Notes: generated from the sequence alone by a model not told the origin. Positions 23,668 to 56,997 are shown, counted from the stretch's first letter. The stretch: 64,000 nucleotides of DNA from an uncultured Acidobacteriaceae bacterium (GCA_963839195.1 CAWITS010000005.1:502477-566476), one strand, 5' to 3'. Program-made: numbers and translations.

Positions 23668-25194
23668 TTAGGGGACCACCGAAACAGCTGTGGAAGATGG
23701 AATTTCGGGCGCAGTCTGCTGGACGAGTTGCTGTGCGGAGTCTTGAGCAAATTGCAACACCCGGTCGGGAAAAACTCCGAAATAGATCGTAGCCGCGAGG
23801 CAACACCCTAGCGCGGCACCGAGTGCGAATGGAACGGGAGTGACCGGCGCTTCTTTCCGCGGTTCACGCATGTACATCATCACGATGATGCGCAAATAGT
23901 AGTACGCCCCTACGCCGCTATTGAGGACGCCAATGATCGTGAGCCAGATCAGGTTGGCTTTCACCGCCGCGCTGAACACGTAGAACTTGGCAAAAAAACC
24001 TCCGGTCATCGGAATGCCGATCAGCGAAAGCAAGAAAATGGTCAGCGTCGCCGCCAGTAGCGGAGAGCTGCGGCCAAGGCCTTCATAGTCTTCGAGAGTC
24101 ACATAGCGCTCGCCGGCGTTGGCGAAGTGGCTGACCACTGCGAACGCACCCAGATTCATGGCGGCATAAGCCGCGAGATAGAACATCGCAGCAGAGGTTC
24201 CCAAGGCAGGCGCAGCTGCGAATGCCACCAGCGTATAACCGGCGTGGGCGATTGCGGAATATGCCAGCAAGCGCTTCACGTTGTCTTGCACCAAAGCGCC
24301 CAAATTGCCCAATGTCATGGAGAGCGCTGCCGCAAGCCAGATGACCCAGACCAATCCGTGCACGTCGATCACGAAAACAACGCGCAGCAAAACTGCAAAC
24401 GCCGCCGCCTTGGGCGCGGTCGACATGAAACCAACCACCGGCGCCGGTGCTCCTTCGTACACGTCAGGAGTCCAGATGTGGAACGGCGCTGCCGCTACCT
24501 TGAAGCCCAGGCCCACGAACATCAACGCCACAGCCACAAAGGCCAGCAATGGGACCGGGCCAGCCCGCAACGTGCTGCCGATCTGATCGATATTCGTCGA
24601 CCCCGTCGCCCCGAACATCAACGCCACTCCATACAGGAAAAATGCCGTCGCAAATGAGCCCAGAAGAAAATACTTCAGCGAGGCTTCAGCGCTCGCAGCC
24701 TCGTGCCTGCGAAATCCCGCCAGCACATAAGAAGAGATGGAAGAAATCTCCAGCGCGATGAAAATCAGCACCAGTTCGATGGCCGACGACATCAGCGCCA
24801 TGCCGGCTACACCAAAGAGAATCAACGCGTAGTATTCCCCGGCGCGAATCCGCTGCACCGCCAGGTACTCGTATGAACTAAGAATCACAATCGCGGCAAT
24901 CGCAATCACCAGCACATGAAAGAAGACGCTGAATCCATCCACTTTCACCATATTCCAGAAGGCCAGGCCCGGGGCCTGAGCCATGAACCATGTAGCTCCA
25001 AGTCCCGCCAGCGTGCCCACGAGCGCGATCAGTCCCAAAAGCTTCTGACCTGTGTTCTCGTCGAGCAGAGGTTCGAGCAACATCACGATCATGCCGAAAA
25101 CTGAAAGAACAATCTCAGGCAGGATGCGGACATAATCCGCGCTCTGCGGCAGCGTCTGTGAGTAGCCTGGGACCAGAGACACTGTCGCTATCAT
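23668..25194 (-). CDS. nuoN: NADH-quinone oxidoreductase subunit N
   Basis: 508 aa polytopic antiporter-like protein. 'FHIWTPDVYEGAPAPVVGFMS'. Last gene of the nuo cluster. Confidence 0.92.
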   Translation of the reverse strand: MIATVSLVPGYSQTLPQSADYVRILPEIVLSVFGMIVMLLEPLLDENTGQKLLGLIALVGTLAGLGATWFMAQAPGLAFWNMVKVDGFSVFFHVLVIAIAAIVILSSYEYLAVQRIRAGEYYALILFGVAGMALMSSAIELVLIFIALEISSISSYVLAGFRRHEAASAEASLKYFLLGSFATAFFLYGVALMFGATGSTNIDQIGSTLRAGPVPLLAFVAVALMFVGLGFKVAAAPFHIWTPDVYEGAPAPVVGFMSTAPKAAAFAVLLRVVFVIDVHGLVWVIWLAAALSMTLGNLGALVQDNVKRLLAYSAIAHAGYTLVAFAAAPALGTSAAMFYLAAYAAMNLGAFAVVSHFANAGERYVTLEDYEGLGRSSPLLAATLTIFLLSLIGIPMTGGFFAKFYVFSAAVKANLIWLTIIGVLNSGVGAYYYLRIIVMMYMREPRKEAPVTPVPFALGAALGCCLAATIYFGVFPDRVLQFAQDSAQQLVQQTAPEIPSSTAVSVVP

Positions 25195-26708
25195 TGCCCC
25201 ACCATCCTGCTCACCACTCGAACCGCGGGCGAGAGTGCGGCCTGAACCGCCGGATCAATCGCCCCCAGCCACAGAATCGGCGCGACGCCCATCACCAGCG
25301 CCACCGCCGCGCAAGGCCAAATCGCCGTCTTCTCGAACCCGGAAAGATCGCTCAAAGAATTGTTGATGGGATGTGTCACCTTGCCGTAGAACACGCGCTG
25401 ATACATCCACAGCAGATAGATTGCGCTCCAAATGATGCCGGTCGCGCCCAGTATTCCGTAAATCGGTTTGTCCTGAAACGCGCCGCTCAACACCAGAAAC
25501 TCACCAATGAAGCCATTGAGAAGTGGCAAACCCACTGACGCCAGCACAATCACCACGTAAGTTGTGGCATACACCGGCATGGGCGAGGCCAGTCCACCGA
25601 ACTCGCGAATCTCATATGTGTGCCGGCGTTCGTGCAGAATTCCCGCCAGCATGAACAGCCCGCCAGTGGAAATTCCGTGCGCCAGCATCACGAACATCGC
25701 GCCATTCAGCCCAGCCTGGGTGAAGCTGAAAATTCCCAGCACAACGAATCCCAGATGGCTGACGGACGAGTACGCGATCAACTTCTTCATGTTGGGCTGA
25801 ACCATCGCAACCAGCGCGCCGTAAATAATGCCAATCAAGGCAAGCGTCATGACCCACGGAGCATTCTGCCGCGACTGCTCGGGAAACAAGCCCAGGTTGA
25901 AGCGCAGCATTCCGTAGGTGCCCATCTTGAGCAGCACCCCGGCTAGCAGCACCGACCCCGCGGTAGGCGCTTCCACGTGCGCATCGGGCAACCAGGTGTG
26001 GAAGGGGAAAAGCGGAACCTTCACCGCGAACGCCACGAAGAATCCGAGGAACAACCACTGCGCAGCCGCTGGGAACTGAGGCACAGCTCCGCTCGCGATC
26101 GCGTCGCGAATCACAACAAAGTCGAAGCTGCCGGTATGCGCATAAAGCCAGAGAATCGCCGCCAGCATGAACACCGACCCAATCATGGTGTACATGAAAA
26201 ACTTCACCGCGGCATACACTTTGCGCTCGTGGCCGAAAATACCGATCAGCAGCGCCATCGGGATCAGTGTGGCTTCCCAGAAGAAGTAGAAGAGGAACAA
26301 GTCGAGAGAAGTGAAGACCCCGATCAGAGCAGTCTCCAAAATCAGTAGCAGAATGAAGAATTCCTTCACCCGCTCATGAATCGACTTCCATGAAATCAGC
26401 ACGCACAGCGGCGTCAGAAATGTAGTGAGCACCACCAGCCACATCGAGAAGCCGTCCACCCCCATGTGGTAGTGGATATTCGGAGTGGATACCCACTGTT
26501 TGTTGACCTGGTACTGAAAGTCAGTTTGCCCGCGAACGAAATAGACTGGCAGGTGCAGAGACAAAACAAACGTCAGCAGCGTAATAACGAGAGCAAAAAT
26601 ACGGATGTCGCGATCGCGCCGGGGCAACAGCAGCAGCAGCAATGCGCCCGCCAGAGGTGTAAGCGTCACCAGAGAAAGAATGATCGGGCTGAGACTGTCA
26701 GTGCTCAT
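25191..26708 (-). CDS. nuoM: NADH-quinone oxidoreductase subunit M
   Basis: 505 aa. 'FHTWLPDAHVEAPTAGSVLLAGVLLKMG'. 4-nt overlaps with its neighbours. Confidence 0.92.
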   Translation of the reverse strand: MSTDSLSPIILSLVTLTPLAGALLLLLLPRRDRDIRIFALVITLLTFVLSLHLPVYFVRGQTDFQYQVNKQWVSTPNIHYHMGVDGFSMWLVVLTTFLTPLCVLISWKSIHERVKEFFILLLILETALIGVFTSLDLFLFYFFWEATLIPMALLIGIFGHERKVYAAVKFFMYTMIGSVFMLAAILWLYAHTGSFDFVVIRDAIASGAVPQFPAAAQWLFLGFFVAFAVKVPLFPFHTWLPDAHVEAPTAGSVLLAGVLLKMGTYGMLRFNLGLFPEQSRQNAPWVMTLALIGIIYGALVAMVQPNMKKLIAYSSVSHLGFVVLGIFSFTQAGLNGAMFVMLAHGISTGGLFMLAGILHERRHTYEIREFGGLASPMPVYATTYVVIVLASVGLPLLNGFIGEFLVLSGAFQDKPIYGILGATGIIWSAIYLLWMYQRVFYGKVTHPINNSLSDLSGFEKTAIWPCAAVALVMGVAPILWLGAIDPAVQAALSPAVRVVSRMVGQ

Positions 26709-28642
26709 CGCACCCCCATCCAGATCATGAAAGCAATCACCGCCGCCGAGCCTGCCGCAATCCAGCCCGCGTAGGAGCGGATGTTTCCGGATTGCATCTG
26801 TCGAACTTCGTCGGAAACCTGCCGCGCCCCGTCCCCCGATTCATTCACCGCAGCATCGATAATCTTTCTGTCCACATCCTGCCAGAGGATTCGGGTCGAG
26901 CCCTCGATCAGCGGCTTGACGAAAAGCGCGGCGTAGAGTTCGTCGATGTAGTACTTGTGCACCACTGCCTGGTAGAAGCCGCCCAGCGCGTCCGCGATTT
27001 TCTGAGGCAGATCCTGGCGTTTGTAATAGAGTAGGTAAGCCAGCCACCACCCCGATAGCGCGACAGCCACCGAGACCCCCATCAGCAACCATTCGGTGAT
27101 CCGACTCGCCGTCTCGGCGGTCGCCTCGCCGGTATTGAAAACCGGTGCGAGAAAATTCTCGAAATGGTTGCCCCACCCCACGAACCCTCCCACCAGCGAG
27201 AGCAACGCCAGTATCATCAAAGGTCCCAGCATCACCATCGGGCTCTCGTGTGGTTCGCCATGCCCATGGGAATCGTGTCCGTGTGAGCCATGCGGATCCG
27301 CTGGCATCCCGCGGTAATCGCCGAAGAACGTCATATACCACAGGCGGAACATGTAGAAAGATGTAATGAACGCCGTGACCACGCCGATTGCCCAGTACAC
27401 CCAGCTCACCTGGTAAGCCTTCCAGAGAATTTCGTCCTTGCTCCAAAAGGCCGCCAGTGGCGGGATCCCGGCGATGGCCAGCGTCGCAATACTCATCGTG
27501 AGAAACGTCCACGGGATATACGACCTCAGTCCGCCCATCTTGCGCATATCCTGCTCGCCACCGACTGCGTGAATCACGGAGCCGGCGCCGAGAAACAGCA
27601 GGCCCTTGAAGAACGCATGCGTCATCAGGTGGAAGATCCCTGCCGAAAAAGCCCCCACTCCACAAGCCATGAACATGTAACCCAGCTGCGAAATCGTCGA
27701 GTAGGCAAGAACTTTCTTGATGTCGGTCTGAGCGATGCCGATCGTCGCTGCAAAAAATGCAGTCGACGTCCCGATAATCGCCACAACCATCAACGCAGTA
27801 GGGGCGCGTTCAAAAATTACATGCGAACGCGCAACCATGTAGACGCCCGCCGTCACCATGGTCGCGGCATGGATCAACGCCGAAACTGGCGTGGGACCTT
27901 CCATCGCATCCGGCAGCCAGACATACAGCGGAATCTGCGCCGACTTGCCGCAAGCTCCAACCATCAGCAGAATGCCGATAGCCGTCAGCAGCCCGGCGCC
28001 CGCCGTCTCCACGCCGAGAGGAGAGATGCTCTGAAACACCCGATCAAAAGTCAGCGATCCAAAGTGCTTGATCAGCAAAAACAGCGCGATCAGAAACCCG
28101 AAATCACCGATGCGGTTCACGATGAACGCCTTCTTGCCCGCCGACGCCGCAGAATCTTTCGTGAACCAGAATCCGATCAGCAGATAGGACGCCAGTCCCA
28201 CCCCCTCCCACCCGATAAACATCACCAGGTAGTTGTTGGCCAGCACCAGCGTCAGCATGAAAAACATGAACAGGTTCAGGTAGCTGAAGAAGCGGTAGTA
28301 GCTGGGGTCGTTCCACATGTAGCCGACGGAGTAGATGTGAATCAGAAAGCCGACTCCAGTAACCACCAGCAACATGACCAGGGACAGTTGGTCCAGATAA
28401 AAGGCGAAGTCCGCTCTGAAGCCGAGGATGCGGATCCAGTGCGCAACAAATTCCTGGTAGGGAAGTGACAACGACGAAAATCGGACCGCAACCCACAACG
28501 CCATCGCAAACGCAGCGCCGCTGAAAAAAAGTGCTACCGTGCTCACGGCCTGGCGCGAAGACTTCTTGCCCAGAAAGCCGTTGATCGCAGCCCCCGCCAG
28601 CGGCAGAACCGGGATCAGCCACAAATTGAGATTCGGGTTCAT
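26705..28642 (-). CDS. nuoL: NADH-quinone oxidoreductase subunit L
   Basis: 645 aa. '[28 protein letters not shown]'. Long C-terminal amphipathic extension. Confidence 0.92.
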
Positions 28643-28953
28643 AGCTTGAGCAGGTTCACCTGATCCACGTTCAAAGTCTCGCGCGTGCGATAAACCGCGA
28701 TGATGATGGCCAGTCCCACTGCCGCTTCCGCCGCCGCCACCACCATCACAAAGAAAACGAATACCTGCCCGGCCAGCGCGTGCCAGTGTGCTGCGAACGC
28801 CACAAACGAAAGATTCACTCCGTTCAACATCAGCTCAATCGACATGAAGATCGTGATGATGTTGCGTCTGATCAGAAATCCCACCACACCGCAGGCAAAC
28901 AGGAATCCGCTCAGCAGCAGGTAATACGACAGCGGAATGTAGGAGGCAACCAT
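28639..28953 (-). CDS. nuoK: NADH-quinone oxidoreductase subunit K
   Basis: 104 aa, 3 TM. 'ELMLNGVNL...[11 protein letters not shown]'. Confidence 0.9.
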
Positions 28954-29465
28954 CAGTCCGTCTCCTGCGCCGGCGTTTCCGGCTTGCTGGCCAGAACTAC
29001 GGCGCCCATGATGGCGATCAGAATCAGAACCGACGTGACTTCAAAGGGCAACAGGAAATTGTGAAAGAGAAGCTGGGCGATGTCGGTTGGATTCCCCGGC
29101 AGTGCGCCGATCGGCACGACTTCAGTCCCGGATTGCCGCAGCACCACCCATGCCACCAGCACGCTGCCGGTCAGCACTCCGGGCACCCCCAGTAGAAGTG
29201 CGACCCGGCTGCCATTCGTGTGCTCTTCTTCGCCCGCGTTCAGCAGCATGATGACAAAGACAAACAACACCATGATGGCGCCGGCGTAGACGATCACCTG
29301 CACCGCCGCGACAAATTCGGCGCCGAGTAGCAAATATTCACCGGCCAGCGCCGCCATCACCGCAATCAGCGACAGCGCGCTGTTGATTGGATGCCGTTGC
29401 GCCAGCAGGTTAACCGCCCCCGCCACGCAAACCGCACCGAACGCCAGAAAAAGTATGAGATGCAT
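28953..29465 (-). CDS. nuoJ: NADH-quinone oxidoreductase subunit J
   Basis: 170 aa. '[21 protein letters not shown]'. Confidence 0.88.
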
Positions 29466-29470
29466 CGTCC

Positions 29471-29578
29471 AGTTCTCAGTTCTCAGTTCTCAAGTTCTCA
29501 GCAGACCTTTTAGAAGGCTATTTCTCAGCCGGCAAGCCTGGGCCGTTACTGAGAACTGAGAACCGAGAACTGAGAACT
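29471..29578. repeat. long hairpin with (AGTTCTC)n tandem-repeat arms filling the nuoH-nuoJ spacer
   Basis: Left arm agttctcagttctcagttctcaagttctcag (29471-29501). Right arm ctgagaactgagaaccgagaactgagaact (29549-29578) is its reverse complement apart from 1 mismatch and 1 bulge. 47-nt loop. Confidence 0.9.
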
Positions 29579-29586
29579 CGCTTTTG

Positions 29587-30633
29587 TCACCATGCAACAG
29601 CAATCGCCGTTGCTGCCAGATTCGCAATCGCCAGCGGCAGCAGAAACTTCCAGCCAAAAGACATCAGTTGGTCGTAGCGGAAGCGCGGCAACGTCCCGCG
29701 CACCCAGATATAAAGAAAGAGAAAACAGAAAACCTTCGCGCCAAACCAGAACACAGGCAGCAATGCCCGCACCAGAGGAGGCCCAAACAGCGGTCCATGC
29801 CATCCCCCAAAAAATAACAAAGTGGCCAGGCACCCGACCGTAATCATGTTGGCGTATTCCGACATGAAGTACATGGCGAACTTCATGGAACTGTATTCGG
29901 TGTGGTAACCGGCAACCAGCTCGGTTTCCGCTTCGGGCAGGTCAAACGGAATGCGATTCGTTTCCGCGTACGCCGCCATCAAATAAATAAAGAAGCCGAC
30001 GAACTGCCCGTGAAAAATATTCCACCGCGGGATAATGCCGAGAAACCGCCCGCCCTGCGCATCCACAATCGTGCGCAGGCTGAAACTCCCAGTCTGAATC
30101 AGGATTCCAACCAGCGAGAGCCCAAGCGCAATTTCATAACTCACCATCTGCGCGCTCGATCGCAATCCGCCCAGTAGCGAGTATTTGTTGTTCGACGACC
30201 ACCCCGCCAGCGCCACTCCGTACACCCCCAGCGAGGTAATCCCTAGAACCATCAGCAGCCCGATGTTCACGTCTGTGACTTGCAGCGGAATACTGTAGCC
30301 CGCAATCGTGATCGAATTGCCAAAAGGGATCACGGAAATCGAAGTCAGCGCAAAGATCAGCGCCATCATCGGCGCCGCCAAAAACAGCGGCTTGTAGACG
30401 TGCGGCGGCGTCAGGTCTTCTTTAAACAGCAACTTCACCCCGTCCGCCAGCGGTTGCAGCAGTCCAAATGGCCCCACCCGCGTGGGTCCCCAGCGATTCT
30501 GTATGTGGCCTACCACTTTGCGTTCCAGCCAGACCGTGTACGCGACCGCGGTGAGCAACGCGACCAGGACGATCACCGACTTGATCACCGACACGAGTAT
30601 GAAAACGCCTACGGACAATGCCTTGCTCTCCAA
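29587..30633 (-). CDS. nuoH: NADH-quinone oxidoreductase subunit H
   Basis: 348 aa. 'WLERKVVGHIQNRWGPTRVGPFGLLQPLADG'. Confidence 0.92.
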   Translation of the reverse strand: MESKALSVGVFILVSVIKSVIVLVALLTAVAYTVWLERKVVGHIQNRWGPTRVGPFGLLQPLADGVKLLFKEDLTPPHVYKPLFLAAPMMALIFALTSISVIPFGNSITIAGYSIPLQVTDVNIGLLMVLGITSLGVYGVALAGWSSNNKYSLLGGLRSSAQMVSYEIALGLSLVGILIQTGSFSLRTIVDAQGGRFLGIIPRWNIFHGQFVGFFIYLMAAYAETNRIPFDLPEAETELVAGYHTEYSSMKFAMYFMSEYANMITVGCLATLLFFGGWHGPLFGPPLVRALLPVFWFGAKVFCFLFLYIWVRGTLPRFRYDQLMSFGWKFLLPLAIANLAATAIAVAW

Positions 30634-30659
30634 AATGCCGGAATCTTAACGCTCGATAA

Positions 30660-33029
30660 TCAGTCCGCCGCGACCTCGGCGGCCTTGACCTCGTGACTCT
30701 CCATCACTGACTTCAATGTGCGCGAATATCGTCCCAGGGTTCCAGAAGTGAAAAGATCATCGTTCGCCGGAGCAATCGACTCCGCTCGATGCGCCACCCC
30801 AGGCCCAGCCTCGGTCAGCGACGTATGCTGGCTGTTGCCCGCCAGCAGATTCATGCGAGACACGTCATAGCCCGGAACCAGCCGCTGAATCTCATCCAGA
30901 ATCGCGGTGGGATCGAACGGGCTCATCTTCGGCTCCAGCCCGTGCGCCTCAAGCCATACCGCATGACGGTCAGCCTCGCCCGACTGCGCTCCGCGCGACT
31001 GCCCCATGTCGGCATAGGTGCCGCCGCCAAACGGCACCAGCCGTCGCACATCGAAGCCCATGGCATCCGCGACGCGCACGATCATCTCGAAATCAGTTTT
31101 CGTGCCCGTGACTTCGCCGGCTTTCTTCACCAGCTGTACGTCGCCGCAAGTATTGGTAAATGTTCCCGACTTTTCGTAGGCGTTCGCGGCCGGCAACACC
31201 ACATCGGCCATGATCGCGGTCTCAGTAAGAAACATATCTTGCACGACGATGAAGCTCTTCGAGAAAGCAAATGGATCGATCTTCAATCGGCCGACAGGAT
31301 TCGATCCCACAACATAAAGGGCCTTCAACCGGCCCGCATTCCCGGCTTCGACCATGCCATCCACATCAAGGCCGGCAGTCTTCGGGATTTCTCCCCACTC
31401 CCGGTGGAATTGGCTGTTTCCGGCGGTCGGGTGATATCCCGGCAATAGATCGGGATACAGACCCATATCCGCGGCTCCGCGAGAGTTCGCGTAGTCCGCC
31501 AGACAGACAAACTTGGCCCCAGGAATTGCAGAACCGAACTTTACAAGGCTCGCCAGGTCGCCGCCACGGAGTTCAGAACCGAAAACGATAACCAGATTCT
31601 GCTCGCCGCGAAGCTTGTCGCGCAGCGTGGCCCATGCGTCTTTGCTATTCGATGAAGTGATGAGCGAATCGACAGCGGTGTCGCTGCCTGCAAGGAACGC
31701 GGCAACCTGTCCTTCGCTTCCGGCCGGGATCTGCGTAAAGCTCGTCGCCTGCCGCCGCAATTTGATTGGACTGGAGTTAATCAGGTAAAACCGCGCCCGG
31801 TGCAGCCGCACGTTGTTGCGAATCTGCCAGGCCAGCAGCGGGTGTTGTTCGGTGGGATCATTCCCAATCAGCAGCACAGCGGGAGCAGTGAACACGTCCG
31901 CCATGCTGGCCGTAGCATCGCCTTTGCCGCGAACCGCAGCCGCGAAAGCAGGGAAGTCCGCCGTGCGATGGTGATCCACATTATTCGTCTTCAGCACCAC
32001 GCGCGCGAACTTGGAAAGCAAATAAGCTTCTTCGTTGGTGGTGCGGGTCGAACCGATCACTCCAATCGCCGCACCGCCATCCCTGGCGCGAACCTCCGCG
32101 AATTTTTTCCCGATCAATTCAAACGCTTCTTCCCACGTGGCCGGAGACAGCTTGCCGTCCCTGCGAATCAGCGGATGCGTCAGGCGTTCTTCATGATTCG
32201 CGAAATCGAACGCATAGCGCCCCTTGATGCATAAGAAGTCGCCATTCGTCCCGCTCTTGTCGCGGTTATCGCCGCGCACAATCTCCATGCCCGCATCGGA
32301 GCGGCGCACGCCCAGCGTGGTCTTGCACCCATCCCCGCAATGCGTGCAAATCGTGCCCACATGCTTCATCTCCCAGGGCCGCGTCTTGTAGCGATATGCG
32401 CCAGACGTAAGCGCGCCCACCGGGCAAATATCGATACACATGCCGCACTCTTCGCACTCCAGGTGATCTTGTTTATTAGGCGCGATGATCGAACTCACGC
32501 CGCGGTTCTGCACGCCAAGAGCCCACACATCCATGCCTTCGCCGCACACCCGCACACACCGGAAGCAGAGAATGCAGCGCGGCCGGTCGAAAAACACCAC
32601 CGGCGACCACTGCTGCTCATCTTTGTGGTTCTTCGCCTCCATGAATTTCGATTCCGCCGCGCCATACGAGAACGTCATGTCCTGCAGTTCGCATTCCCCC
32701 CCGGCATCGCACACCGGACAATCCAGAGGATGGTTCCCCAGCAGCATCTCCAGCGTCGACTTCCGCGCCTGCTTGATCTCCGCACTATCCGAAGTGACGA
32801 CCATGCCTTCGCTGATCACGGTCGTACAAGCAGTCTGCAGCTTCGGCATCTTCTCAATCTTCACCAGGCACATGCGGCAAGCGCCCTGCAAAGAAAGGTT
32901 GGGGTAATAGCAAAACGAAGGCACCTCAATGCCCACGGTCTTGCAGGCCTCAATCAGCAGCGTCCCGGCGGGAGCCGTGACCTTCTTGCCGTCAACGGTA
33001 AGTGTTACGGTTTGGGATGCGTCCGCCAT
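30660..33029 (-). CDS. nuoG: NADH-quinone oxidoreductase subunit G (75-kDa Fe-S subunit)
   Basis: 789 aa. N-terminal 2Fe-2S 'CYYPNLSLQGACRMCLV'. 4Fe-4S 'CILCFRCVRVC' and 'CEECGMCIDICPVGA'. Molybdopterin-oxidoreductase-like body. Confidence 0.92.
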   Translation of the reverse strand: MADASQTVTLTVDGKKVTAPAGTLLIEACKTVGIEVPSFCYYPNLSLQGACRMCLVKIEKMPKLQTACTTVISEGMVVTSDSAEIKQARKSTLEMLLGNHPLDCPVCDAGGECELQDMTFSYGAAESKFMEAKNHKDEQQWSPVVFFDRPRCILCFRCVRVCGEGMDVWALGVQNRGVSSIIAPNKQDHLECEECGMCIDICPVGALTSGAYRYKTRPWEMKHVGTICTHCGDGCKTTLGVRRSDAGMEIVRGDNRDKSGTNGDFLCIKGRYAFDFANHEERLTHPLIRRDGKLSPATWEEAFELIGKKFAEVRARDGGAAIGVIGSTRTTNEEAYLLSKFARVVLKTNNVDHHRTADFPAFAAAVRGKGDATASMADVFTAPAVLLIGNDPTEQHPLLAWQIRNNVRLHRARFYLINSSPIKLRRQATSFTQIPAGSEGQVAAFLAGSDTAVDSLITSSNSKDAWATLRDKLRGEQNLVIVFGSELRGGDLASLVKFGSAIPGAKFVCLADYANSRGAADMGLYPDLLPGYHPTAGNSQFHREWGEIPKTAGLDVDGMVEAGNAGRLKALYVVGSNPVGRLKIDPFAFSKSFIVVQDMFLTETAIMADVVLPAANAYEKSGTFTNTCGDVQLVKKAGEVTGTKTDFEMIVRVADAMGFDVRRLVPFGGGTYADMGQSRGAQSGEADRHAVWLEAHGLEPKMSPFDPTAILDEIQRLVPGYDVSRMNLLAGNSQHTSLTEAGPGVAHRAESIAPANDDLFTSGTLGRYSRTLKSVMESHEVKAAEVAAD

Positions 33030-33056
33030 AAATATCTTTAGTCTGGAAATCTAACT

Positions 33057-33626
33057 CTAAGTGCGCACACCTGCCCGGTACGCCGGGCTATTCTTGACCT
33101 CTTCAATCTGCAGCGCATGCCTTTGTGCGTGCGATCCCATCAGCAACAGACACTCATAAGTGCTAATCACCCCGACGACGTGATGAGGGTGCTTGACCTC
33201 GGTCGCACGCAGGTCCTCTCCGGTTTGTTCGACAAGGTGAAGCGTTCGCTGATGCACTGCCTGGAAATGCGCCACCGCTTCAGCCAGCGTGCAAAAGCGC
33301 CCACGCGGCTGTGATTGATCGGAGGCATCAAACCGAGCGCTGCGGTCAGTACCACTTCTCAGGATGCGCTCGTCGCGTCTCGGTCCTTCCGCGTCTCTCG
33401 TATTCCTTTCGCCCGTCACCAAAGCGAGCATGATTTCTTCGGCGACAGCTACGTGTTCCACGCACTCGAGCACAGACCAGCGATCCTCGGCAGGACGCAG
33501 GTGGCACGCGGTCTCATCCACTCCGGCAATGCTGGCAAGAAACGCGTCTCCACCGTTGCGTAAAGCTTCCAGCAATCTGGCCATGTCAATCTCGGTGCGA
33601 TTGTTTGTGGCTGGAGCTGTGCTCAT
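33057..33626 (-). CDS. DinB-family protein embedded between nuoF and nuoG
   Basis: Start at MSTAPATNN (ATG 33626-33624), 2 nt after the nuoF stop. 'WSVLECVEHVAVAEE', 'HQRTLHLV', 'MGSHAQRHALQIEE' form the four-helix DinB-type His pattern. Confidence 0.7.
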   Translation of the reverse strand: MSTAPATNNRTEIDMARLLEALRNGGDAFLASIAGVDETACHLRPAEDRWSVLECVEHVAVAEEIMLALVTGERNTRDAEGPRRDERILRSGTDRSARFDASDQSQPRGRFCTLAEAVAHFQAVHQRTLHLVEQTGEDLRATEVKHPHHVVGVISTYECLLLMGSHAQRHALQIEEVKNSPAYRAGVRT

Positions 33627-33628
33627 GG

Positions 33629-34951
33629 TCAATGGGCCATCACCGGAAGTTGCTCCAGTGCGCCTTCCTCCTCGTACGGGCAAGGCCGGCCTTCTAAATG
33701 ATCTTCAAACTCTCTGCGGAACTTTTTCACGAACGCAATCGTCGGCATCGCCGCCGCATCCCCCAGCGGACAAAATGTCCGCCCCAGCATGTTCTCCGCG
33801 AGGTACTGCATGTTGTCGATGTCCTTCTTCACGCCGTGGCCGGAATGAAAGCGCGTCAAAGTTTTCTTTAGCCAGTCCGTTCCCTCGCGGCAGGGAATGC
33901 ACCACCCGCAACTCTCGTGCTGATAAAACTTCATAGTCCGCAGCGCAAATTTCACAATGCACTGCGCATCGTCGACCACCACCACGCCGCCCGAACCCAG
34001 CATCGAACCAGCTTTCGCGACCGAATCGAAATCCATGTTCACATCGATCTCATCGGCGGTAAGGCAAGGACACGAAGCCCCGCCCGGTACAACAGCTTTC
34101 AACTGTCGCCCGTTAGGGATGCCGCCACCGACCTCATAAATCATCTTCCTCAGGTTGTAGCCCATCGGCAGCTCATAAACGCCCGGCTTCGCGATATTGC
34201 CGCTGAGGCAAAACAGCCGAGTCCCCCCATTCTTCGGCGGACCAATCTTGGCAAACCATTCTGCACCGCCGAGAATAATGTGAGGCACGCTGGCCAAAGT
34301 TTCCGCATTATTAATGACCGTCGGACCACCCCACAGACCGACCACGGCAGGAAACGGAGGCCGAATCCGCGGAATCCCTCGCTTGCCCTCCAGTGACTCC
34401 ATCAGCGCCGACTCTTCTCCAACTTCGTAAGCCCCGGCGCCGCCATGCCAGTAAATATCGAAATCGCGCCCGCTGCCGAAAATATTCTTGCCCAGAAAGC
34501 CCTTCGCGTAAGCGTCGGCAATCGCCTTCTGCATGATGTTCAACAAATATCGATACTCGCCGCGGATGTAGATGTAGCCGCTGCGCGCCCCCACCGCCAG
34601 CCCGCCGATCATTACTCCTTCGATCACGGAGTGCGGATCTTGCTCAAAAATCAGCCGGTCCTTACAAGTACCGGGCTCGCTCTCATCGCCATTGCACAGC
34701 ACATACTTCGGTTTCGCCGACTGCTTGGGCACAAACGACCACTTCATCCCAGTCGAGAACCCAGCCCCGCCCCGTCCCCGCAGCCCGGAATTCTTGACTT
34801 CATTAATGATCGCGTCCGGCTCCATCCCAAGCGCCTTCCGCACGGCCTTGTAGCCGTCCAGTTCGAGATAACGGTCAATGTTGGTCGCACCCTGGCCAAA
34901 GCGCCGGGAGACGACCTTTACCTCGTCGGGATGGGAAACCAAGTCAGCCAT
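33629..34951 (-). CDS. nuoF: NADH-quinone oxidoreductase subunit F
   Basis: Start at MADLVSHPDE (ATG 34951-34949). 'GLRGRGGAGFSTGMKW' is the FMN/NADH site. 'ESCGWCIPCREG' is the N3 cluster. The upstream ORF extension translates the repeat hairpin. Confidence 0.92.
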   Translation of the reverse strand: MADLVSHPDEVKVVSRRFGQGATNIDRYLELDGYKAVRKALGMEPDAIINEVKNSGLRGRGGAGFSTGMKWSFVPKQSAKPKYVLCNGDESEPGTCKDRLIFEQDPHSVIEGVMIGGLAVGARSGYIYIRGEYRYLLNIMQKAIADAYAKGFLGKNIFGSGRDFDIYWHGGAGAYEVGEESALMESLEGKRGIPRIRPPFPAVVGLWGGPTVINNAETLASVPHIILGGAEWFAKIGPPKNGGTRLFCLSGNIAKPGVYELPMGYNLRKMIYEVGGGIPNGRQLKAVVPGGASCPCLTADEIDVNMDFDSVAKAGSMLGSGGVVVVDDAQCIVKFALRTMKFYQHESCGWCIPCREGTDWLKKTLTRFHSGHGVKKDIDNMQYLAENMLGRTFCPLGDAAAMPTIAFVKKFRREFEDHLEGRPCPYEEEGALEQLPVMAH

Positions 34952-35057
34952 TTTGTAATTTTGTAATCGGGTAATTTTGTAAATTGAAACCTGACGGCCC
35001 AAGACGACTTCCGCGGCAGTTCTAAATTACAAAATTACCCGATTACCAAATTACAAA
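34952..35057. repeat. long hairpin with (TTTGTAAT)n tandem-repeat arms filling the nuoE-nuoF spacer
   Basis: Left arm tttgtaattttgtaatcgggtaattttgtaaatt (34952-34985). Right arm aaattacaaaattacccgattaccaaattacaaa (35024-35057). 32 of 34 positions are complementary. 38-nt loop starting gaaacctgacgg. Confidence 0.9.
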
Positions 35058-35061
35058 TCCT

Positions 35062-35547
35062 CTATTGCGTCGCTTTCTTTCTGTATTCATCCAGAACCCT
35101 ATCCATCTTCTCCGTCGTCAGGTTCTCGTGAAAATCGTAATTCACCTGCGCTGCCGGAGCCCAGCTGCAAGCCCCAATGCATTCCACTTCCTCAAGCGTG
35201 AACAGCCCGTCACGCGTCGTTCCCTTGTGGCCCACGCCCAGCTTCTCAGCGCAGTGATGCAGAATCTTTTCGCCCCCGCGCACCAGGCAACTGATGTTCG
35301 TGCAAACCTGCACGTTGAACTTCCCGCGCGGCTTCGTAGTCAGCATCGAGTAATAACTGATCACGTTGCGCACTTCGAGTTCGGTCAGATCAAGCCGGCC
35401 CGCAAGCTCCGCGATCACCTCATCGGACAAAAATCCAACCTCATCCTGCGCATAAAGCAGAGTAGGCACCAGCGCCGACCGCTTCGTCGGATAGTGTGTA
35501 AGCATCTCCGCAAACCGCGCCTCGAACTCCTCAGAAAACTTCATCAT
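35062..35547 (-). CDS. nuoE: NADH-quinone oxidoreductase subunit E
   Basis: Start at MMKFSEEF. 'RSALVPTLLYAQDE' and 2Fe-2S cysteines 'VCTNISC ... ECIGAC'. Confidence 0.9.
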   Translation of the reverse strand: MMKFSEEFEARFAEMLTHYPTKRSALVPTLLYAQDEVGFLSDEVIAELAGRLDLTELEVRNVISYYSMLTTKPRGKFNVQVCTNISCLVRGGEKILHHCAEKLGVGHKGTTRDGLFTLEEVECIGACSWAPAAQVNYDFHENLTTEKMDRVLDEYRKKATQ

Positions 35548-35553
35548 CCAAAT

Positions 35554-35580
35554 CCTCTGTGAACCTCTGTGTCCCCTGTG
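35554..35580 (-). repeat. three tandem CCTCTGTG-type units just upstream of the nuoE start
   Basis: cctctgtg (35554-35561), cctctgtg (35564-35571), cccctgtg (35573-35580). On the coding strand this reads CACAGAGG x2 plus CACAGGGG, each with an SD-like GAGG/GGGG. Confidence 0.7.
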
Positions 35581-35619
35581 TTTAAGATTTGACTGCTTGG
35601 GGACGAAGATATCCACGGA

Positions 35620-36825
35620 TTATCGATCAATCTCTCCGAGCACAATGTCGATCGATCCTATGGCCGCCACCACATCCGCAATCAAGCCGCCCTCGCACAT
35701 TTTGCCCAAAGTTTGCAAATTCGCGAAACAGGCCGACCGCATGTGCACCCGATAAGGTTTAGCGGTCCCGTCACTGACAATGTAATAGCCCATCTCACCC
35801 CGCGGCGACTCCACTGCCTGATACACCTCACCCGCCGGCACCGCAAATCCCTCGGTAATAATCTTGAAGTGGTAGATGAGTGCTTCCATCTGCGTCTTCA
35901 TCTTCTCCCGGTCCGGCAGCACAATACCTGGTGCATCGGCTTTGATCCGCCCTTCAGGCATTCCATCCAAAGCTTGCTTCACAATCTCGTTCGATTCCCG
36001 CAGTTCCCGCACCCGGCACATATACCGCGCGAACACGTCACCTTCCGGCGCCACCGGAACCTTGAACTTGAAATTCTCATACCCCGAGTACGGCATATCA
36101 CGGCGCAAATCGATGTCCACGCCGCTTCCGCGCAGCGTCGGTCCAGTAGCCCCTAGCGCGATGGCGTCTTCCGCAGTCAGCTTCGCCACGCCTTTGGTCC
36201 GCATCATCCAGATCGGATTTCCCGTCAGCAAATTCTCGTACTCATCCACCTTCTCAGGAAAGCGCCCGGCAAATTCGCGAACCCGCTCAAAGAATCCCAA
36301 AGGCGGTTCCAGCGCCACCCCTCCTACTCGGAAGTACGAGGTCATCATGCGCTGCCCGCTAACCATCTCAAACATCTTCAGCACTTCTTCACGCTCGCGG
36401 AAGCAATACAGGAACACCGTCAGCGCGCCAATATCCATGGCATGCGTGCCCAGCCACACCAGGTGCGAATTGATGCGCGTCAGCTCGTTCAGCAGCACCC
36501 GCAGCCACTGCGCTTTCGGCGGAATCTCCAGCCCCAGCAGCTTCTCCACGGCCAGCACGTAACACAGATTGTTGGTCATGGGACACAGATAGTCGATGCG
36601 GTCGGTCAACGGCACCACCTGCTGGTAAAACTTCGCCTCGCAGGTCTTTTCGATTCCGGTATGCAGAAAGCCAATGTCCGGCATGATCCGCACCACGGTT
36701 TCGCCGTCGATCTCCAGCAGCACGCGCAGCACGCCGTGCGTCGAAGGATGCTGCGGCCCCATGTTCAGGATCATGGTTCGATCCTGACCGGGTTCAAGCA
36801 CGGGCGTGGGAGCGAGGTAAGCCAT
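35620..36825 (-). CDS. nuoD: NADH-quinone oxidoreductase subunit D
   Basis: Start at MAYLAPTPV (ATG 36825-36823), after the nuoC stop. 'LNMGPQHPSTHGVLR', 'DRIDYL'. Confidence 0.92.
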   Translation of the reverse strand: MAYLAPTPVLEPGQDRTMILNMGPQHPSTHGVLRVLLEIDGETVVRIMPDIGFLHTGIEKTCEAKFYQQVVPLTDRIDYLCPMTNNLCYVLAVEKLLGLEIPPKAQWLRVLLNELTRINSHLVWLGTHAMDIGALTVFLYCFREREEVLKMFEMVSGQRMMTSYFRVGGVALEPPLGFFERVREFAGRFPEKVDEYENLLTGNPIWMMRTKGVAKLTAEDAIALGATGPTLRGSGVDIDLRRDMPYSGYENFKFKVPVAPEGDVFARYMCRVRELRESNEIVKQALDGMPEGRIKADAPGIVLPDREKMKTQMEALIYHFKIITEGFAVPAGEVYQAVESPRGEMGYYIVSDGTAKPYRVHMRSACFANLQTLGKMCEGGLIADVVAAIGSIDIVLGEIDR

Positions 36826-36833
36826 GACGAAGC

Positions 36834-37331
36834 CTAGCGGTAACCCTCCACCGGATAGTCCTTCCGCAGCGGATGACCTTTCCAATCCTCCGGCATCAGA
36901 ATGCGCCGCAGGTAAGGATGCCCGTTAAAGCGGACGCCAAACAGATCAAACACTTCGCGCTCAAAATAATTGGCGCCGGGCCAAATTGAAGTAAGCGACT
37001 CAACCGCCGGGCTCGCACTATCGAGCCGAACCTTCAGCCGTACCCGCTCCTTCTTGGAAATCGAAAGCAAGTGATAAATCACCTCAAATCGGGGCTCCGA
37101 CGGATACCAATCCACGCAGGTAACATCGGAAAGAAAATTAAAAGCGCACTCCGCGTCGTCGCGCAGAAGTGCGCAAGCCTCGCGCAGGTTCTCGCGCTCC
37201 ACGGTGATCGTCATCTCGTCGCGGTCAAACTTCACCCCCGCAACCGCCGCCGGATTCCACGCCAGCAGCCGCCCCACCGCCGGATGACCCTTCAGCTGTT
37301 CAAGATCGGTAATGGCAGGCGCCAAAGCCAC
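36834..37331 (-). CDS. nuoC: NADH-quinone oxidoreductase subunit C
   Basis: 165 aa, GTG start sharing 1 nt with the nuoA stop. 'SLTSIWPGANYFEREVFDLFGVRFNGHP'. Confidence 0.9.
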   Translation of the reverse strand: MALAPAITDLEQLKGHPAVGRLLAWNPAAVAGVKFDRDEMTITVERENLREACALLRDDAECAFNFLSDVTCVDWYPSEPRFEVIYHLLSISKKERVRLKVRLDSASPAVESLTSIWPGANYFEREVFDLFGVRFNGHPYLRRILMPEDWKGHPLRKDYPVEGYR

Positions 37332-37750
37332 TAGCTTTCTCCTCGCCGGATCTTGGACGGTACACCGGACCGCACGTCAGCCGGACCCCAATCCAGAACG
37401 CCCTTCTTCCAGACATAAAAGAAGCCGACTAAAACAATGCCAATGTAGACAAACATTTCCCACAGCCCGAAATGTTTGAGGTCGCGCAGAATCACCGCCC
37501 AGGGATAAAGAAAGACGGCCTCAACGTCGAACAGAATGAACAGCATAGCCACCAGGTAGAACTGCACCGAGAAACGCCCCCGCGTGTCCCCCACCGGAGT
37601 CATGCCGCATTCATAGGCAGAAAGCTTGGCCTTTGTCGGTTTCCGCTCCCCGATCAGCCACGAAAGCGCGATAATGGCAGTCGCAATTCCGCCCGCCAAC
37701 AAGAGATGGATCAGAAACGGCAGGTAGCCAGCGAAGTAATTGTCGGGCAT
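37331..37750 (-). CDS. nuoA: NADH-quinone oxidoreductase subunit A
   Basis: 139 aa, 3 TM. 'YECGMTPVGDTRGRFSVQFYLVAMLFILFDVE'. Confidence 0.9.
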   Translation of the reverse strand: MPDNYFAGYLPFLIHLLLAGGIATAIIALSWLIGERKPTKAKLSAYECGMTPVGDTRGRFSVQFYLVAMLFILFDVEAVFLYPWAVILRDLKHFGLWEMFVYIGIVLVGFFYVWKKGVLDWGPADVRSGVPSKIRRGES

Positions 37751-37840: not shown

Positions 37841-37948
37841 ATTTGGCAATTTTGTAATTTCGTAATTTGAAAACCTGTCACGGCAACGCAGCACACGGCC
37901 GGGCGAGCAAGTGAAATTACAAAATCACAAAATCACAAAATTACAAAT
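37841..37948. repeat. imperfect hairpin of the same (TTTGTAAT)n family, in the nuoA / hypothetical-gene divergent region
   Basis: Left arm atttggcaattttgtaatttcgtaatttg (37841-37869). Right arm gaaattacaaaatcacaaaatcacaaaattacaaat (37913-37948). The loop starts aaacctgtcacgg, similar to the loop of 34952-35057. Ends 5 nt before ATG 37954. Confidence 0.8.
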
Positions 37949-37953
37949 CTCTT

Positions 37954-38535
37954 ATGATTTTCGGATTTAACACCGACGTAAAGCACGTAGACACCATCTA
38001 CCACGTGCAAAGCGAAGCGCGCGAGAGCGAAAAACTGCTCCAGACGCAGGTCTTCGTGCGCGGAAGATGCATCGGCAAACGCGCCATCTCCTATGCGGCC
38101 TCGGCTGCGCAAGTCGGCTTTGGCGATCCCCAAAAAGAGCAGCAACTCCGCGATCAGCATCGCCTCGTGCTCGAAGCCATCCGCGAAGGCAAACTGGAAG
38201 GTGTCCTCGACCGCGCCGAAACCGACGCTTTGGCCGGCATCAAGCAACTCGACGTGCTCTGGGAAAACGCCGCCTCGGTTCACAACGACCGCAATCTGAC
38301 GATGCAACTGCGCGTCACCGAAGACGGCACGGCCGTGCCCAGCGCCCGCCTCACCTTCCGCTTTGCCCGTCCCGACGCCGCGCCTTTCTACACCCAGGCC
38401 GTCACCGATTCCGGAGGCAACGCCCAGATCTCGATCGAAGTCGAAGAATCCGCCTTGACCGAAGCCTCCGTAATGGTGCAAGCCAACCACCAGGGACGAA
38501 CCGTAACCCGCAAATTCGCCCTCCGCAAAGCTTGA
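37954..38535 (+). CDS. hypothetical protein
   Basis: 193 aa ORF with ATG start and coding-like composition. The C-terminal half ('LTMQLRVTEDGTAVPSARLTF...GGNAQISIEVEE') looks like a beta-sandwich. No motif that I can name. Confidence 0.55.
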   Translation: MIFGFNTDVKHVDTIYHVQSEARESEKLLQTQVFVRGRCIGKRAISYAASAAQVGFGDPQKEQQLRDQHRLVLEAIREGKLEGVLDRAETDALAGIKQLDVLWENAASVHNDRNLTMQLRVTEDGTAVPSARLTFRFARPDAAPFYTQAVTDSGGNAQISIEVEESALTEASVMVQANHQGRTVTRKFALRKA

Positions 38536-38671
38536 ATGTAGCGCCGCCGTCCCGCTGGCTTCTTGCGCCGAGCGAAGGCGAAGGGTCCAGCCGAGCGCAG
38601 CGAGGCGTCGTCCCGCCGCGTGAGACAATACGGCTCACAGAGGGTTCTCATCGGTTTTAGTTGGAAATGAA

Positions 38672-38893
38672 ATGAATCTTCACATCAATGGAGAAGAGCG
38701 GGCATTCGCGGATCAAACGCCATCCGCCAACTTCACCCTCTCGTCCCTGATCGAATCCCTCGCCATGAAGCCCGACCGCGTAGCCGTCGAACTCAACCGC
38801 GAAATCGTTCCCCGCGACCGCTGGCCGCAGACTCTTCTAAAAGACGGCGACCACCTCGAAATCGTCCACTTCGTCGGCGGCGGCCACAGTTGA
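38672..38893 (+). CDS. thiS: sulfur-carrier protein ThiS (with 2-residue extension past the GG terminus)
   Basis: 73 aa. '...[30 protein letters not shown]' matches the ThiS C-terminus, followed by His-Ser before the stop. Confidence 0.8.
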
Positions 38894-38929
38894 AGGTGTT
38901 CTCGGAATAGGACGTTTCCTGAGACGAAC

Positions 38930-38990
38930 TGTCATCCTGAGCGGAGCATCTGCTTCACGGAGTGAAGCAGATGCGGAGTCGAAGGATCCC
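38930..38990 (+). repeat. REP-A unit (conserved ends, internal 13-bp hairpin)
   Basis: tgtcatcctgagcggagc - atctgcttcacggagtgaagcagat - gcggagtcgaaggatccc. The same 18-nt ends occur in the inverted copy at 53927-53987. Confidence 0.85.
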
Positions 38991-39151
38991 TTGCCTGTCC
39001 ACGTCAGCTTCTGCCCCACAGGGCATTTCCACGTTTGGCCCGGTTTTTCTACCCTTGGTGAGGCGGCCTGTGACTGCGGTACGCTCTTCCTCACGCTGAG
39101 TTTTTCCGGCCCGCGCATTCTTCTAGTTAACCCTCATTTTCCGAATCGTCG

Positions 39152-39179
39152 TTGACACCGGCCAACTCACGTCTAGAAT
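39152..39179 (+). promoter_or_regulatory. sigma-70-like promoter candidate for the MerR-family gene
   Basis: TTGACA (39152-39157), 16-nt spacer, TAGAAT (39174-39179). About 50 nt upstream of ATG 39228. Confidence 0.4.
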
Positions 39180-39214
39180 GTTTCAAACATTCGACTTGCA
39201 GACTGTTTCAAACA
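39177..39214 (+). promoter_or_regulatory. two TGTTTCAAACA half-palindromic boxes (candidate operator)
   Basis: aatgtttcaaacatt (39177-39191, a 7-1-7 palindrome) overlaps the -10 element. A second tgtttcaaaca lies at 39204-39214. Confidence 0.35.
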
Positions 39215-39227
39215 AATTGCCCAGGAG

Positions 39228-39716
39228 ATGGAACGGGAATTCATGCAAGATAGTTTTTCATCGCACGAGGTGATCGCGGTGACCGGCGTAACTGCCCGCC
39301 AGCTCCAGTGGTGGGACGAGCGGGGCGTGGTCAAGCCGCAGCGGACCGGGCATCGCCGTGTGTATTCCCTGCAAAACCTCACGGAAATGGCCGTCATCTG
39401 CGAGCTGCGCCGCAAAGGTTTCTCTCTTCAGGGAGTCCGCAAGGTGATGCGTTTCCTCGAGCGTGAGTTCGGCAAAGGCTTGGCCGAGATCGTCGGCCGC
39501 AACTCTGACGTTCACCTGCTCACCGACGGCAAACATCTCTTTCTCGAAACTTCGGCGCGCCAGATCGTAGACATCCTGAAGAATTCCAGTCAGCCCATTC
39601 TAGGAATCTGCCTCACCGACGCTGTTCGGCAAGTTAGGGCTGACGTCGTCGCCAGAAAAGCGAGTACCTCCGTAACATCGCCGACGATGCGTCGGCGTGC
39701 TAGAAAAGCTTCTTAG
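39228..39716 (+). CDS. MerR-family transcriptional regulator
   Basis: 162 aa. 'SSHEVIAVTGVTARQLQWWDERGVVKPQRTGHRRVYSLQNLTEMAVICELRRKGFSLQGVRKVM' is a MerR-type winged HTH. Confidence 0.8.
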   Translation: MEREFMQDSFSSHEVIAVTGVTARQLQWWDERGVVKPQRTGHRRVYSLQNLTEMAVICELRRKGFSLQGVRKVMRFLEREFGKGLAEIVGRNSDVHLLTDGKHLFLETSARQIVDILKNSSQPILGICLTDAVRQVRADVVARKASTSVTSPTMRRRARKAS

Positions 39717-39771
39717 GCAGCAAGTGCGTATCGAAGCATTGGGTCGAGCTAGCGGAACATAGGAGGAATGC

Positions 39772-40035
39772 ATGGTCGGAGAACTTGACATTCTGAATGA
39801 ATGGATTCCCGAACAAATGCAGCCCGGAACAATTTTTGTCCTCGAAAACGCCGGCGAAGTTGGCGAGAAAGAAGATCCTTACTGGGCCGTGCTGGCCTGC
39901 CCATCCTGCGGCATGCTGGGCCTGATCACGCGGCGGCAGATCAACGGCTTGATGCCAGTCATCTGCGGCTCGGAGCACTGCTCGGCGCAGTTTTTCATTC
40001 GCGAGAGCGAAGTGGTTGTGCGCAAACCGTTTTAG
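39772..40035 (+). CDS. small hypothetical protein with Zn-ribbon-like Cys pattern
   Basis: 87 aa. 'CPSCG ... CGSEHC'. Followed by a terminator-like hairpin. Confidence 0.5.
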   Translation: MVGELDILNEWIPEQMQPGTIFVLENAGEVGEKEDPYWAVLACPSCGMLGLITRRQINGLMPVICGSEHCSAQFFIRESEVVVRKPF

Positions 40036-40041
40036 AAAACG

Positions 40042-41238: not shown

Positions 41239-41244
41239 GATTGG

Positions 41245-41794: not shown

Positions 41795-41796
41795 GA

Positions 41797-56917: not shown

Positions 56918-56997
56918 AATTGCTGATTGCTGATTTTTGATTGATGATTAAGCCCGCGGGTTGTTAATCAACAATCACCAATCTACAATCAGCAATT
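56918..56997. repeat. long hairpin with (ATTGNTG)n tandem-repeat arms filling the ACP-ligase spacer
   Basis: Left arm aattgctgattgctgatttttgattgatgattaa (56918-56951). Right arm ttaatcaacaatcaccaatctacaatcagcaatt (56964-56997). 29 of 34 positions are complementary. 12-nt loop gcccgcgggttg. Confidence 0.85.

Follow-up and report, generated by a model that had tools for sequence, protein, structure and literature searches.

The window analyzed here, the whole stretch of 64,000 nt, carries a nuo operon on the minus strand (23668-37750), and its sequence places the source in an uncultured Acidobacteriaceae/Terriglobia lineage. By Pfam, its genes run nuoA-C-D-E-(hairpin)-F-DinB-G-H-(hairpin)-J-K-L-M-N. 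The operon has neither nuoB nor nuoI by this search, and these two subunits must be encoded elsewhere in this genome. The DinB-superfamily gene (33057-33683) sits between nuoF and nuoG. Feature coordinates are listed in Table 1.

Table 1. Features of the nuoH-nuoJ junction, other repeat hairpins of the window, and hairpins of phage contig L181
Feature	Position	Strand	Description
nuoH	29587..30633	-	Pfam NADHdh; stop codon 29587-29589, 8 nt upstream of the stem
5' arm (mRNA sense)	29549..29578	-	AGUUCUC AGUUCUC GGUUCUC AGUUCUC AG; four heptamers
Loop, 47 nt	29502..29548	-	Locus-unique; small internal stem-loop, homologous only among close nuoH-nuoJ orthologues
3' arm (mRNA sense)	29471..29501	-	CUGAGAACU(U)GAGAACUGAGAACUGAGAACU; end 5 nt upstream of nuoJ AUG
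nuoJ	28953..29465	-	Pfam Oxidored_q3; ATG 29465-29463; no Shine-Dalgarno (SD) sequence
Octamer-arm (AATTACNN) family member	34952..35057	-	nuoE stop 4 nt before, nuoF ATG 0 nt after; z = -6.0
Octamer-arm family member, weak pairing	37841..37948	+	5' leader of RomY-N-terminal-domain gene; ATG 37954, 6 nt after
Acyl carrier protein gene, 80 aa, previously unlisted	56669-56911	+	PP-binding (E = 1e-10); between enoyl-CoA hydratase and acyl-CoA ligase genes
Heptamer AATCNNC-arm family member	56918..56997	+	Acyl carrier protein stop 6 nt before, acyl-CoA ligase ATG (57004) 6 nt after; z = -6.4
Six L181 hairpins, intergenic	3921-4001, 5568-5635, 9617-9705, 10900-10980, 11688-11797, 13433-13503		Four unit families

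The nuoH-nuoJ spacer is 121 nt long and is largely occupied by one inverted repeat. On the plus strand, the first arm (29471-29501) is AGTTCTC repeated four times with one extra A, and the second (29549-29578) is GAGAACT repeated four times with a single T-to-C change. In the mRNA, the nuoH stop is followed by 8 nt, the 5' arm (29578 to 29549), the loop, the 3' arm (29501 to 29471), 5 nt, and the nuoJ AUG (29465). The lone mismatch of the stem, C·A on the plus strand, becomes a G·U wobble in the transcript, and one base is bulged. The predicted RNA fold of 29456-29596 (minus strand) has a free energy of -71.3 kcal/mol, against -39.1 ± 3.8 kcal/mol in 200 dinucleotide shuffles, none of which was as stable (z = -8.5). 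The hairpin is real and very stable, with the arms, mismatch, bulge, and 47-nt loop that had been described from the sequence alone. In the predicted fold, a 5-bp extension of the stem pairs the last nuoH codons with the nuoJ AUG; compared by eye across orthologous spacers, this extension looks non-conserved. The stem is about 30 bp long (arm G+C, about 0.43), no U-tract lies behind it, and no terminator-like feature was called at the two family elements scanned. An intrinsic terminator was rejected for the hairpins on these grounds, and the earlier remark that the stem far exceeds terminator length and lacks a U-tract holds. All nuo genes are co-directional on the minus strand, placing the hairpin inside the operon, as had been proposed; within this gene string it is almost certainly transcribed.

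The sequence-only reading had also put the hairpin exactly where nuoI normally sits. Relatives were collected with a NuoH scan, keeping one genome per species (80 loci; best match, 98% NuoH identity), and their loci cover ±10 kb centered on nuoH. In 24 of 24 relatives whose spacer was read, including Terriglobus roseus, nuoH is directly followed by nuoJ, and in six close relatives the spacer is 21-33 nt long and free of any hairpin. Because nuoH abuts nuoJ even there, the hairpin is not a nuoI stand-in, and a nuoI remnant or replacement was rejected. With nuoB and nuoI both gone and the adjacency independent of the hairpin, its position at the nuoI site is a coincidence.

Three further elements of the same architecture and unrelated sequence had been claimed in the window. 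A custom detector for inverted repeats, set to a minimum arm length of 18 nt, a minimum complementarity of 80%, and an arm periodicity of 5-12, returned exactly the four elements in the 64-kb window and none in ten block-shuffled windows, and all period-7/8 arrays of about four copies in the window are arms of these four hairpins. All three additional elements are present, the one at 37841-37948 folding only weakly (-25.6 versus -21.0 kcal/mol in shuffles; z = -1.4); their sequences are not all unrelated, since those at 34952-35057 and 37841-37948 are both made of AATTACNN octamers. Of the four window copies, three separate a pair of co-directional genes, in the order stop, 4-8 nt, hairpin, 0-6 nt, ATG. 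The acyl carrier protein gene makes the hairpin at 56918-56997 intercistronic, as its stop falls just ahead of the 5' arm. The romY-site copy (37841-37948) stands in a divergent region of about 200 nt, downstream of a sigma-70-like match. Another such match (TTGTTA-17-TACAAT, 56961-56989, plus strand) falls within the 3' half of the hairpin at 56918-56997; if used, it would give a nearly leaderless acyl-CoA ligase mRNA, and a chance origin is plausible (0.2 expected in shuffles).

The elements form a family defined by two inverted arrays of a degenerate 7- to 8-nt unit around a locus-specific spacer; at nuoH-nuoJ the unit is RGTTCYC/GRGAACY. The copies examined number 27, of which the window supplied 4 and nuoH loci the other 23. 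The octamer AATTAC-NN occurs at nuoE-F, nuoF-G, nuoG-H, and upstream of romY, and the heptamer AACTG-NN (equal to GAGAACT) at nuoH-J; AATC-NNN, GAAAC-NN, and TTAGCAC units were also found. Loops are unrelated between loci that carry like arms; among the metagenome matches listed, every loop is different, and the first position of the unit (A/G) and the sixth (T/C) vary in no fixed order. Across the family, spacers are unrelated and range from 6 to 146 nt. Density reaches 48 copies/Mb in the Terriglobia clade (the window and 22 close loci), and other Acidobacteriota nuoH loci, 0.92 Mb in all, contain no family copy. Single hairpins of other unit types were seen next to nuo genes at L065 11527-11611, L074 8042-8125, and L076 711-779; these contigs belong to NC10, Methylomirabilota, and Anaerolineae, so the architecture is not strictly confined to Acidobacteria.

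Placement relative to genes is regular. For 24 of the 27 host copies, an ATG-initiated open reading frame of at least 80 aa starts -3 to +20 nt from an element end (fraction at random positions, 0.20), and in operon cases the 5' arm starts 3-13 nt past the upstream stop. On metagenome contigs, where genes were called with a home-made codon-usage caller that is imperfect and miscalls the romY strand, co-directional genes flank most copies; in about 24 of 31 cases the upstream stop is followed by the 5' arm after -2 to +12 nt, and the gap to the next start varies more widely than this one. Host genes behind hairpins lack an SD sequence, while nuoC, nuoK, and other nuo genes have one. The predicted cost of opening positions -15 to +13 is 18.6 kcal/mol for nuoJ and 17.7 kcal/mol for nuoF, the two highest values among 16 genes, with an excess over other internal cistrons of only about 4-5 kcal/mol.

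Viral and metagenome scans were seeded with two arm patterns. (AGTTCTC)3 matched at least 120 metagenome loci; among the 120 listed, nuoH-nuoJ spacers account for only 2. The RGTTCYC and AATTACNN arm families recur at more than 100 other loci. Among the metagenome matches listed, AGTTCTC-family hairpins precede rplX, rpsK, dnaJ, nuoH, cobO, rsmE, and a type II secretion system (T2SS) ATPase gene, and unpaired arrays outnumber paired ones (94 versus 32). On contigs L226, L304, L239, and L309, AGTTCTC-type hairpins stand directly upstream of rplX (L24), rpsK (S11), dnaJ, and nuoH. Operons of this type are highly expressed, and translational coupling is thought to be important in them.

Both arm families were also matched in IMG/VR contigs of about 60-63% G+C (exact-pattern scans, among the matches listed). 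One of these, L181 (IMG/VR 3300033755_000068; 14 kb), encodes portal, protease, adaptor, and tail proteins (PHROGs) and carries six hairpins (Table 1), two of which have 5' arms identical over 37 nt and unrelated loops. Ahead of an orthologous adaptor gene, L150 has an AGTTCTC hairpin and L181 a GGTCGTT hairpin. Phage copies are followed by an ordinary SD sequence, with the ATG 13-17 nt away, and in other arm families the purine/pyrimidine polarity is reversed. The family thus fills short intergenic gaps in one soil Acidobacteria clade and in phage contigs from similar samples. Unit sharing between chromosomes and phage contigs could indicate that a trans-acting factor recognizes these sequences and that their origin is not by mutation alone; it could also serve as a host-prediction signal. 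The earlier contention that the elements are an intercistronic structural class holds, but its contrast with a single mobile sequence does not: the AGTTCTC family is itself dispersed, at more than 100 loci and in a phage module.

A comparison of orthologous spacers, to look for a retained hairpin with different repeat units, had been suggested, and some relatives do carry hairpins of other units at nuoH-nuoJ. An AGTTCTC-type hairpin is present in L001-L003, L006, L007/L040, L013, and L017. Other units are used in L004/L045 (GGCAACT), L005 (a longer unit), L010/L011 (GGTCAGG/CCCTGAC), L015 (TTAGCAC/GTGCTAA), and L016, and no hairpin of any kind occupies the spacer in L008, L009, L012, L014, L019, and L067. 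The strongest orthologous hairpin reaches -76 kcal/mol (L003); others fold at shuffle level (observed versus shuffled: L002, -39.7 versus -34.1; L004, -44.6 versus -42.4; L010, -30.8 versus -28.2 kcal/mol). In L001, the closest relative (88% identical to the window at the nucleotide level), the nuoE-nuoF and nuoH-nuoJ copies are decayed, and an unrelated 46-nt leader takes the place of the hairpin at the romY site. The nuoE-nuoF copy of L005 is about 96% identical to that of the window, loop included (by our count). Unit number varies between species and arms (4 versus 6 in L003, 4 versus more than 12 in L264); an exact NuoJ look-up for same-species contigs gave no match and a NuoK look-up gave only a 950-bp contig. 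The pattern at this spacer is one of birth, decay, and loss rather than strict conservation.

Tests of origin were made on the wider family. Target site duplications (TSDs) in 105 elements had the same length distribution as a shifted-position control, and no flank motif was found. No Rfam family matched the hairpins at the gathering or E-value threshold (only tRNA matched, and sub-threshold matches were generic microRNA [miRNA] hairpins), and a known RNA family was rejected. RNA-level wobble bias was not found among sense-strand mismatches (G·U, 36; A·C, 32). Selection on RNA pairing should favor G·U, so the arms seem to regain their complementarity through DNA-level processes. Natural arm registers are 0.89 complementary, versus 0.83 in registers shifted by one unit, a difference biased by the choice of the best register; register-specific covariation of unit variants is accordingly weak. 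A small GC hairpin in the loop, as a nucleus for palindrome growth, is seen in nuoH-nuoJ orthologues and was rejected as a general feature, since 93 loops showed no enrichment of nucleating hairpins (mean z = -0.13). The missing TSDs, the missing Rfam match, the lack of wobble bias, and the weak register together argue against a classical miniature transposon (MITE) and also against a tightly selected RNA helix. They fit repeat arrays expanded by slippage and copied or homogenized in inverted orientation, the last step of which we infer.

Our preferred reading, at a probability of roughly 0.55, is that the nuoH-nuoJ hairpin is a copy of a lineage-specific, dispersed family of tandem-repeat palindromes with a DNA-level origin and likely post-transcriptional consequences. 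The family would be made and kept complementary at the DNA level by tandem-repeat slippage, inverted copying or template switching, and homogenization between copies; selection on individual RNA base pairs would seemingly not be the cause of the complementarity. Copies would arise, decay, and vanish at the same short spacers over time. Once transcribed, the element would fold into a helix of about 30 bp, whose base would bring the nuoH stop within about 13 nt of the SD-less nuoJ start. RNA helices of about 30 bp are generic substrates of RNase III. The helix may be cut by a double-strand-specific (RNase III-type) nuclease or may block exonucleases, in either case segmenting the operon mRNA. 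Cleavage would yield nuoA-E, nuoF-H, and nuoJ-N segments, and the nuoJ leader would then be short, unstructured, and derived from the repeats; uncleaved, nuoJ would be translated by ribosomes arriving from nuoH. RNase III processing is plausible by analogy with the hmw heptamer-repeat hairpin of Haemophilus (PMC12721329) and with Correia elements (PMC2649163), a coupling effect is plausible too, and because complex I, ribosomal-protein, and dnaJ junctions tolerate such elements, the cell presumably has to use one route or the other. Selection for function could alternatively explain why the hairpin persists across relatives with 74-98% NuoH identity, and could likewise account for its presence in ribosomal-protein and nuo operons.

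The sequence-only reading pointed in that direction, suggesting that the hairpins may be processing, stability, or translational-coupling elements that segment long operons. In its full form this view makes them dedicated RNA elements, RNase III processing or stability determinants that divide operon mRNAs into segments with different half-lives and are kept by selection for that role. We regard this as unlikely. The helices are indeed 25-35 bp long, nearly perfect, and free of a U-tract, and the intercistronic position recurs across nuo junctions and species. Hairpins also separate late genes of the phage contig, much as RNase III sites lie between the late genes of T7. Experiments on another heptamer-repeat hairpin provide a direct precedent, since RNase III cuts it and expression changes as a result (PMC12721329). 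Set against these points are the near-equal counts of G·U and A·C mismatches, a register preference barely above that of shifted registers, and the excess of unpaired arrays among the metagenome matches listed. Several orthologous spacers, moreover, are at shuffle-level stability or empty, with no visible replacement.

Less probable again is a translation-initiation device, in which (GAGAACU)n would be an SD-independent ribosome-loading leader and the complementary upstream array an anti-leader that masks it. Translation of nuoJ would then be conditional on melting by the terminating ribosome, by a cold-shock or S1-type protein, or on cleavage. The arrangement at the locus suits such a device: (GAGAACU)4 stands in sense orientation and ends 5 nt from the SD-less nuoJ AUG, as start-proximal heptamer arrays do. 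Host genes behind other hairpins likewise lack an SD, the gap between array end and ATG is most often 4-6 nt, and the romY copy and the acyl carrier protein/acyl-CoA ligase copy keep 6 nt to the ATG and to both codons, respectively. GAACTGA is one base away from TAACTGA, arrays of which lie a few nucleotides from starts and replace the ribosome-binding site (PMC4679880). Heptamer arrays of Nostoc are found at start codons or overlapping them (bioRxiv 10.1101/2022.06.06.494920). Several points weigh the other way. A sense downstream ATG open reading frame follows only 22 of 94 unpaired arrays, versus 11 of 94 in the control orientation; phage copies place an ordinary SD behind the hairpin and the ATG beyond it; other arm families have the opposite purine/pyrimidine polarity; and proximity to a start codon is partly trivial in short operon spacers.

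A bolder possibility, which we consider a long shot, is that the hairpins constitute a functional, lineage-wide expression system common to hosts and phages, operating by ribosome hand-over at the stem base or through a factor that reads the repeats, with repeat copy number tuning output. By the first route, stop and SD-less start would lie side by side and terminating ribosomes would cross the stem base, a prokaryotic counterpart of ribosome shunting. By the second, a repeat-specific factor (Csp/S1-like, or a partner of RNase III) would read the 7- to 8-nt units. By either route, the number of repeats would tune output from one cistron to the next in phage late operons as well as in those for nuo and ribosomal-protein genes.

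An ordinary MITE, a non-autonomous transposon with internally repetitive terminal inverted repeats and a transposase encoded elsewhere, is very improbable. The RGTTCYC and AATTACNN arm families are shared by many dispersed loci and by phage contigs, as terminal inverted repeats would be, and two L181 copies have 5' arms identical over 37 nt. The lineage-wide, all-or-none distribution is that of REPIN/RAYT systems (PMC3116915). Yet TSDs among the 105 elements do not exceed the shifted control, no flank motif or conserved core joins the copies, arms differ in unit number and order and do not match a master copy, arrays occur singly too, and no transposase was seen within the 64-kb window. A classical MITE was rejected on the absence of TSDs, flank motif, and shared core. 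A DNA-level protein-binding or transcription signal (an iteron-like operator, bidirectional terminator, or pause site) is the least probable of all, for although inverted short units resemble operator arrays, pairing has no strand bias, and a sigma-70-like match falls inside the element at 56918-56997, the 7- to 8-bp period is out of phase with the DNA helix, termination inside essential operons would be harmful, U-tracts and terminator calls are absent, and several unrelated unit families would need several proteins.

Among described systems, the element most resembles REPIN/BIME and Correia elements in its way of working: these too are extragenic inverted repeats that are transcribed with their neighbors into hairpins. 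It belongs to neither family. REPINs (REP-BIME) are extragenic doublets in which a short conserved sequence stands in both orientations, with a less conserved spacer between; they are predicted to form hairpins in ssDNA or mRNA and share with this family the many copies, the singlets beside doublets, and the lineage-specific presence (PMC3116915). A REPIN arm is a single, imperfectly palindromic REP of 20-40 nt, typically with a GTAG/CGTC head, whereas the arms here are 3-6 tandem units of 7-8 nt in variable number and have no such head, and the spacers here are unrelated and 6-146 nt long. Correia (CREE, NEMIS) elements of Neisseria have TA target duplications and a conserved core; here there is no TSD, no shared core, and the arms are tandem repeats. 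They resemble the family as small inverted-repeat elements that are co-transcribed with their neighbors, alter expression of adjacent genes, and form an RNA hairpin bound or cut by RNase III (PMC2649163).

The closest likeness to the repeats themselves comes from elsewhere. In the hmw 5' untranslated region of Haemophilus influenzae, an (ATCTTTC)n hairpin is cleaved by RNase III, which raises expression, and repeat number is dynamic (PMC12721329). As here, where the structure is predicted, one side of a long hairpin is a transcribed heptamer tandem repeat that precedes a start codon; the hmw hairpin, however, has one repeat arm and a G-rich partner at a single phase-variable adhesin locus, in contrast to a genome-wide family in housekeeping operons. 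The (TAACTGA)n arrays of Beggiatoaceae, cyanobacteria, and Bacteroidetes are sporadic across lineages with a role thought to be translational (PMC4679880), and these and the Nostoc arrays (bioRxiv 10.1101/2022.06.06.494920) similarly place heptamers a few nucleotides from SD-less starts. Those are direct arrays, with only one inverted case in the BOGUAY genome, whereas the present ones are inverted pairs that form helices of 25-35 bp from several unit families. Every array in the window has an inverted partner, so none is a stand-alone direct repeat of the TAACTGA type; unpaired arrays exist elsewhere. The phage copies of the family recall the extended start-associated sequences (ESAS) of Cluster K mycobacteriophages, which are imperfect inverted repeats with a variable spacer just upstream of start-associated sequences (SAS), conserved by gene position across phages (PMC3203893). 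They differ in having 17-bp, non-repetitive, phage-specific arms, a spacer of 4-13 bp, and an unrelated sequence. A full-text literature search found no account of a genome-wide family of paired 7- to 8-nt arrays that form hairpins, either in Acidobacteria or in their phages.

In soil, Acidobacteria rank among the most abundant bacteria, and to our knowledge almost nothing is known of their post-transcriptional biology. About 50 copies/Mb of 25- to 35-bp helices, lodged between the stop of one gene and the start of the next in complex I, ribosomal-protein, and chaperone operons, would have to be either processed or bypassed by the translation machinery, and either outcome would be new for operon expression in these organisms. 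The family links REPIN-like palindromes, start-proximal heptamer arrays, and the RNase III-processed repeat hairpin of Haemophilus, previously separate phenomena, and supplies many natural variants for testing how the three relate.

Apart from these elements, GC skew in the window changes from strongly negative to strongly positive near 40 kb (about 38000-42000), where gene orientation flips too. The double switch suggests a replication origin or terminus; no dnaA was found nearby among the open reading frames tested, and an origin was rejected for that reason. A second type of repeat, inverted and non-tandem, lies at 3237-3338 and 56594-56658 (TTGTCATCCCGAGC...GCTCGGGATGACAA; 31-nt arms, 90% complementary), and three direct copies of GCTCAGGATGAC were noted with it. 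From the sequence, these repeats look like a second dispersed family. Direct repeats of 15 nt without an inverted partner occur at 48393-48430 (TTAAACCAGGAACAA, 2.5 copies) and 444-487 (GTTCGTCCTAAACTC-type, 2.9 copies).
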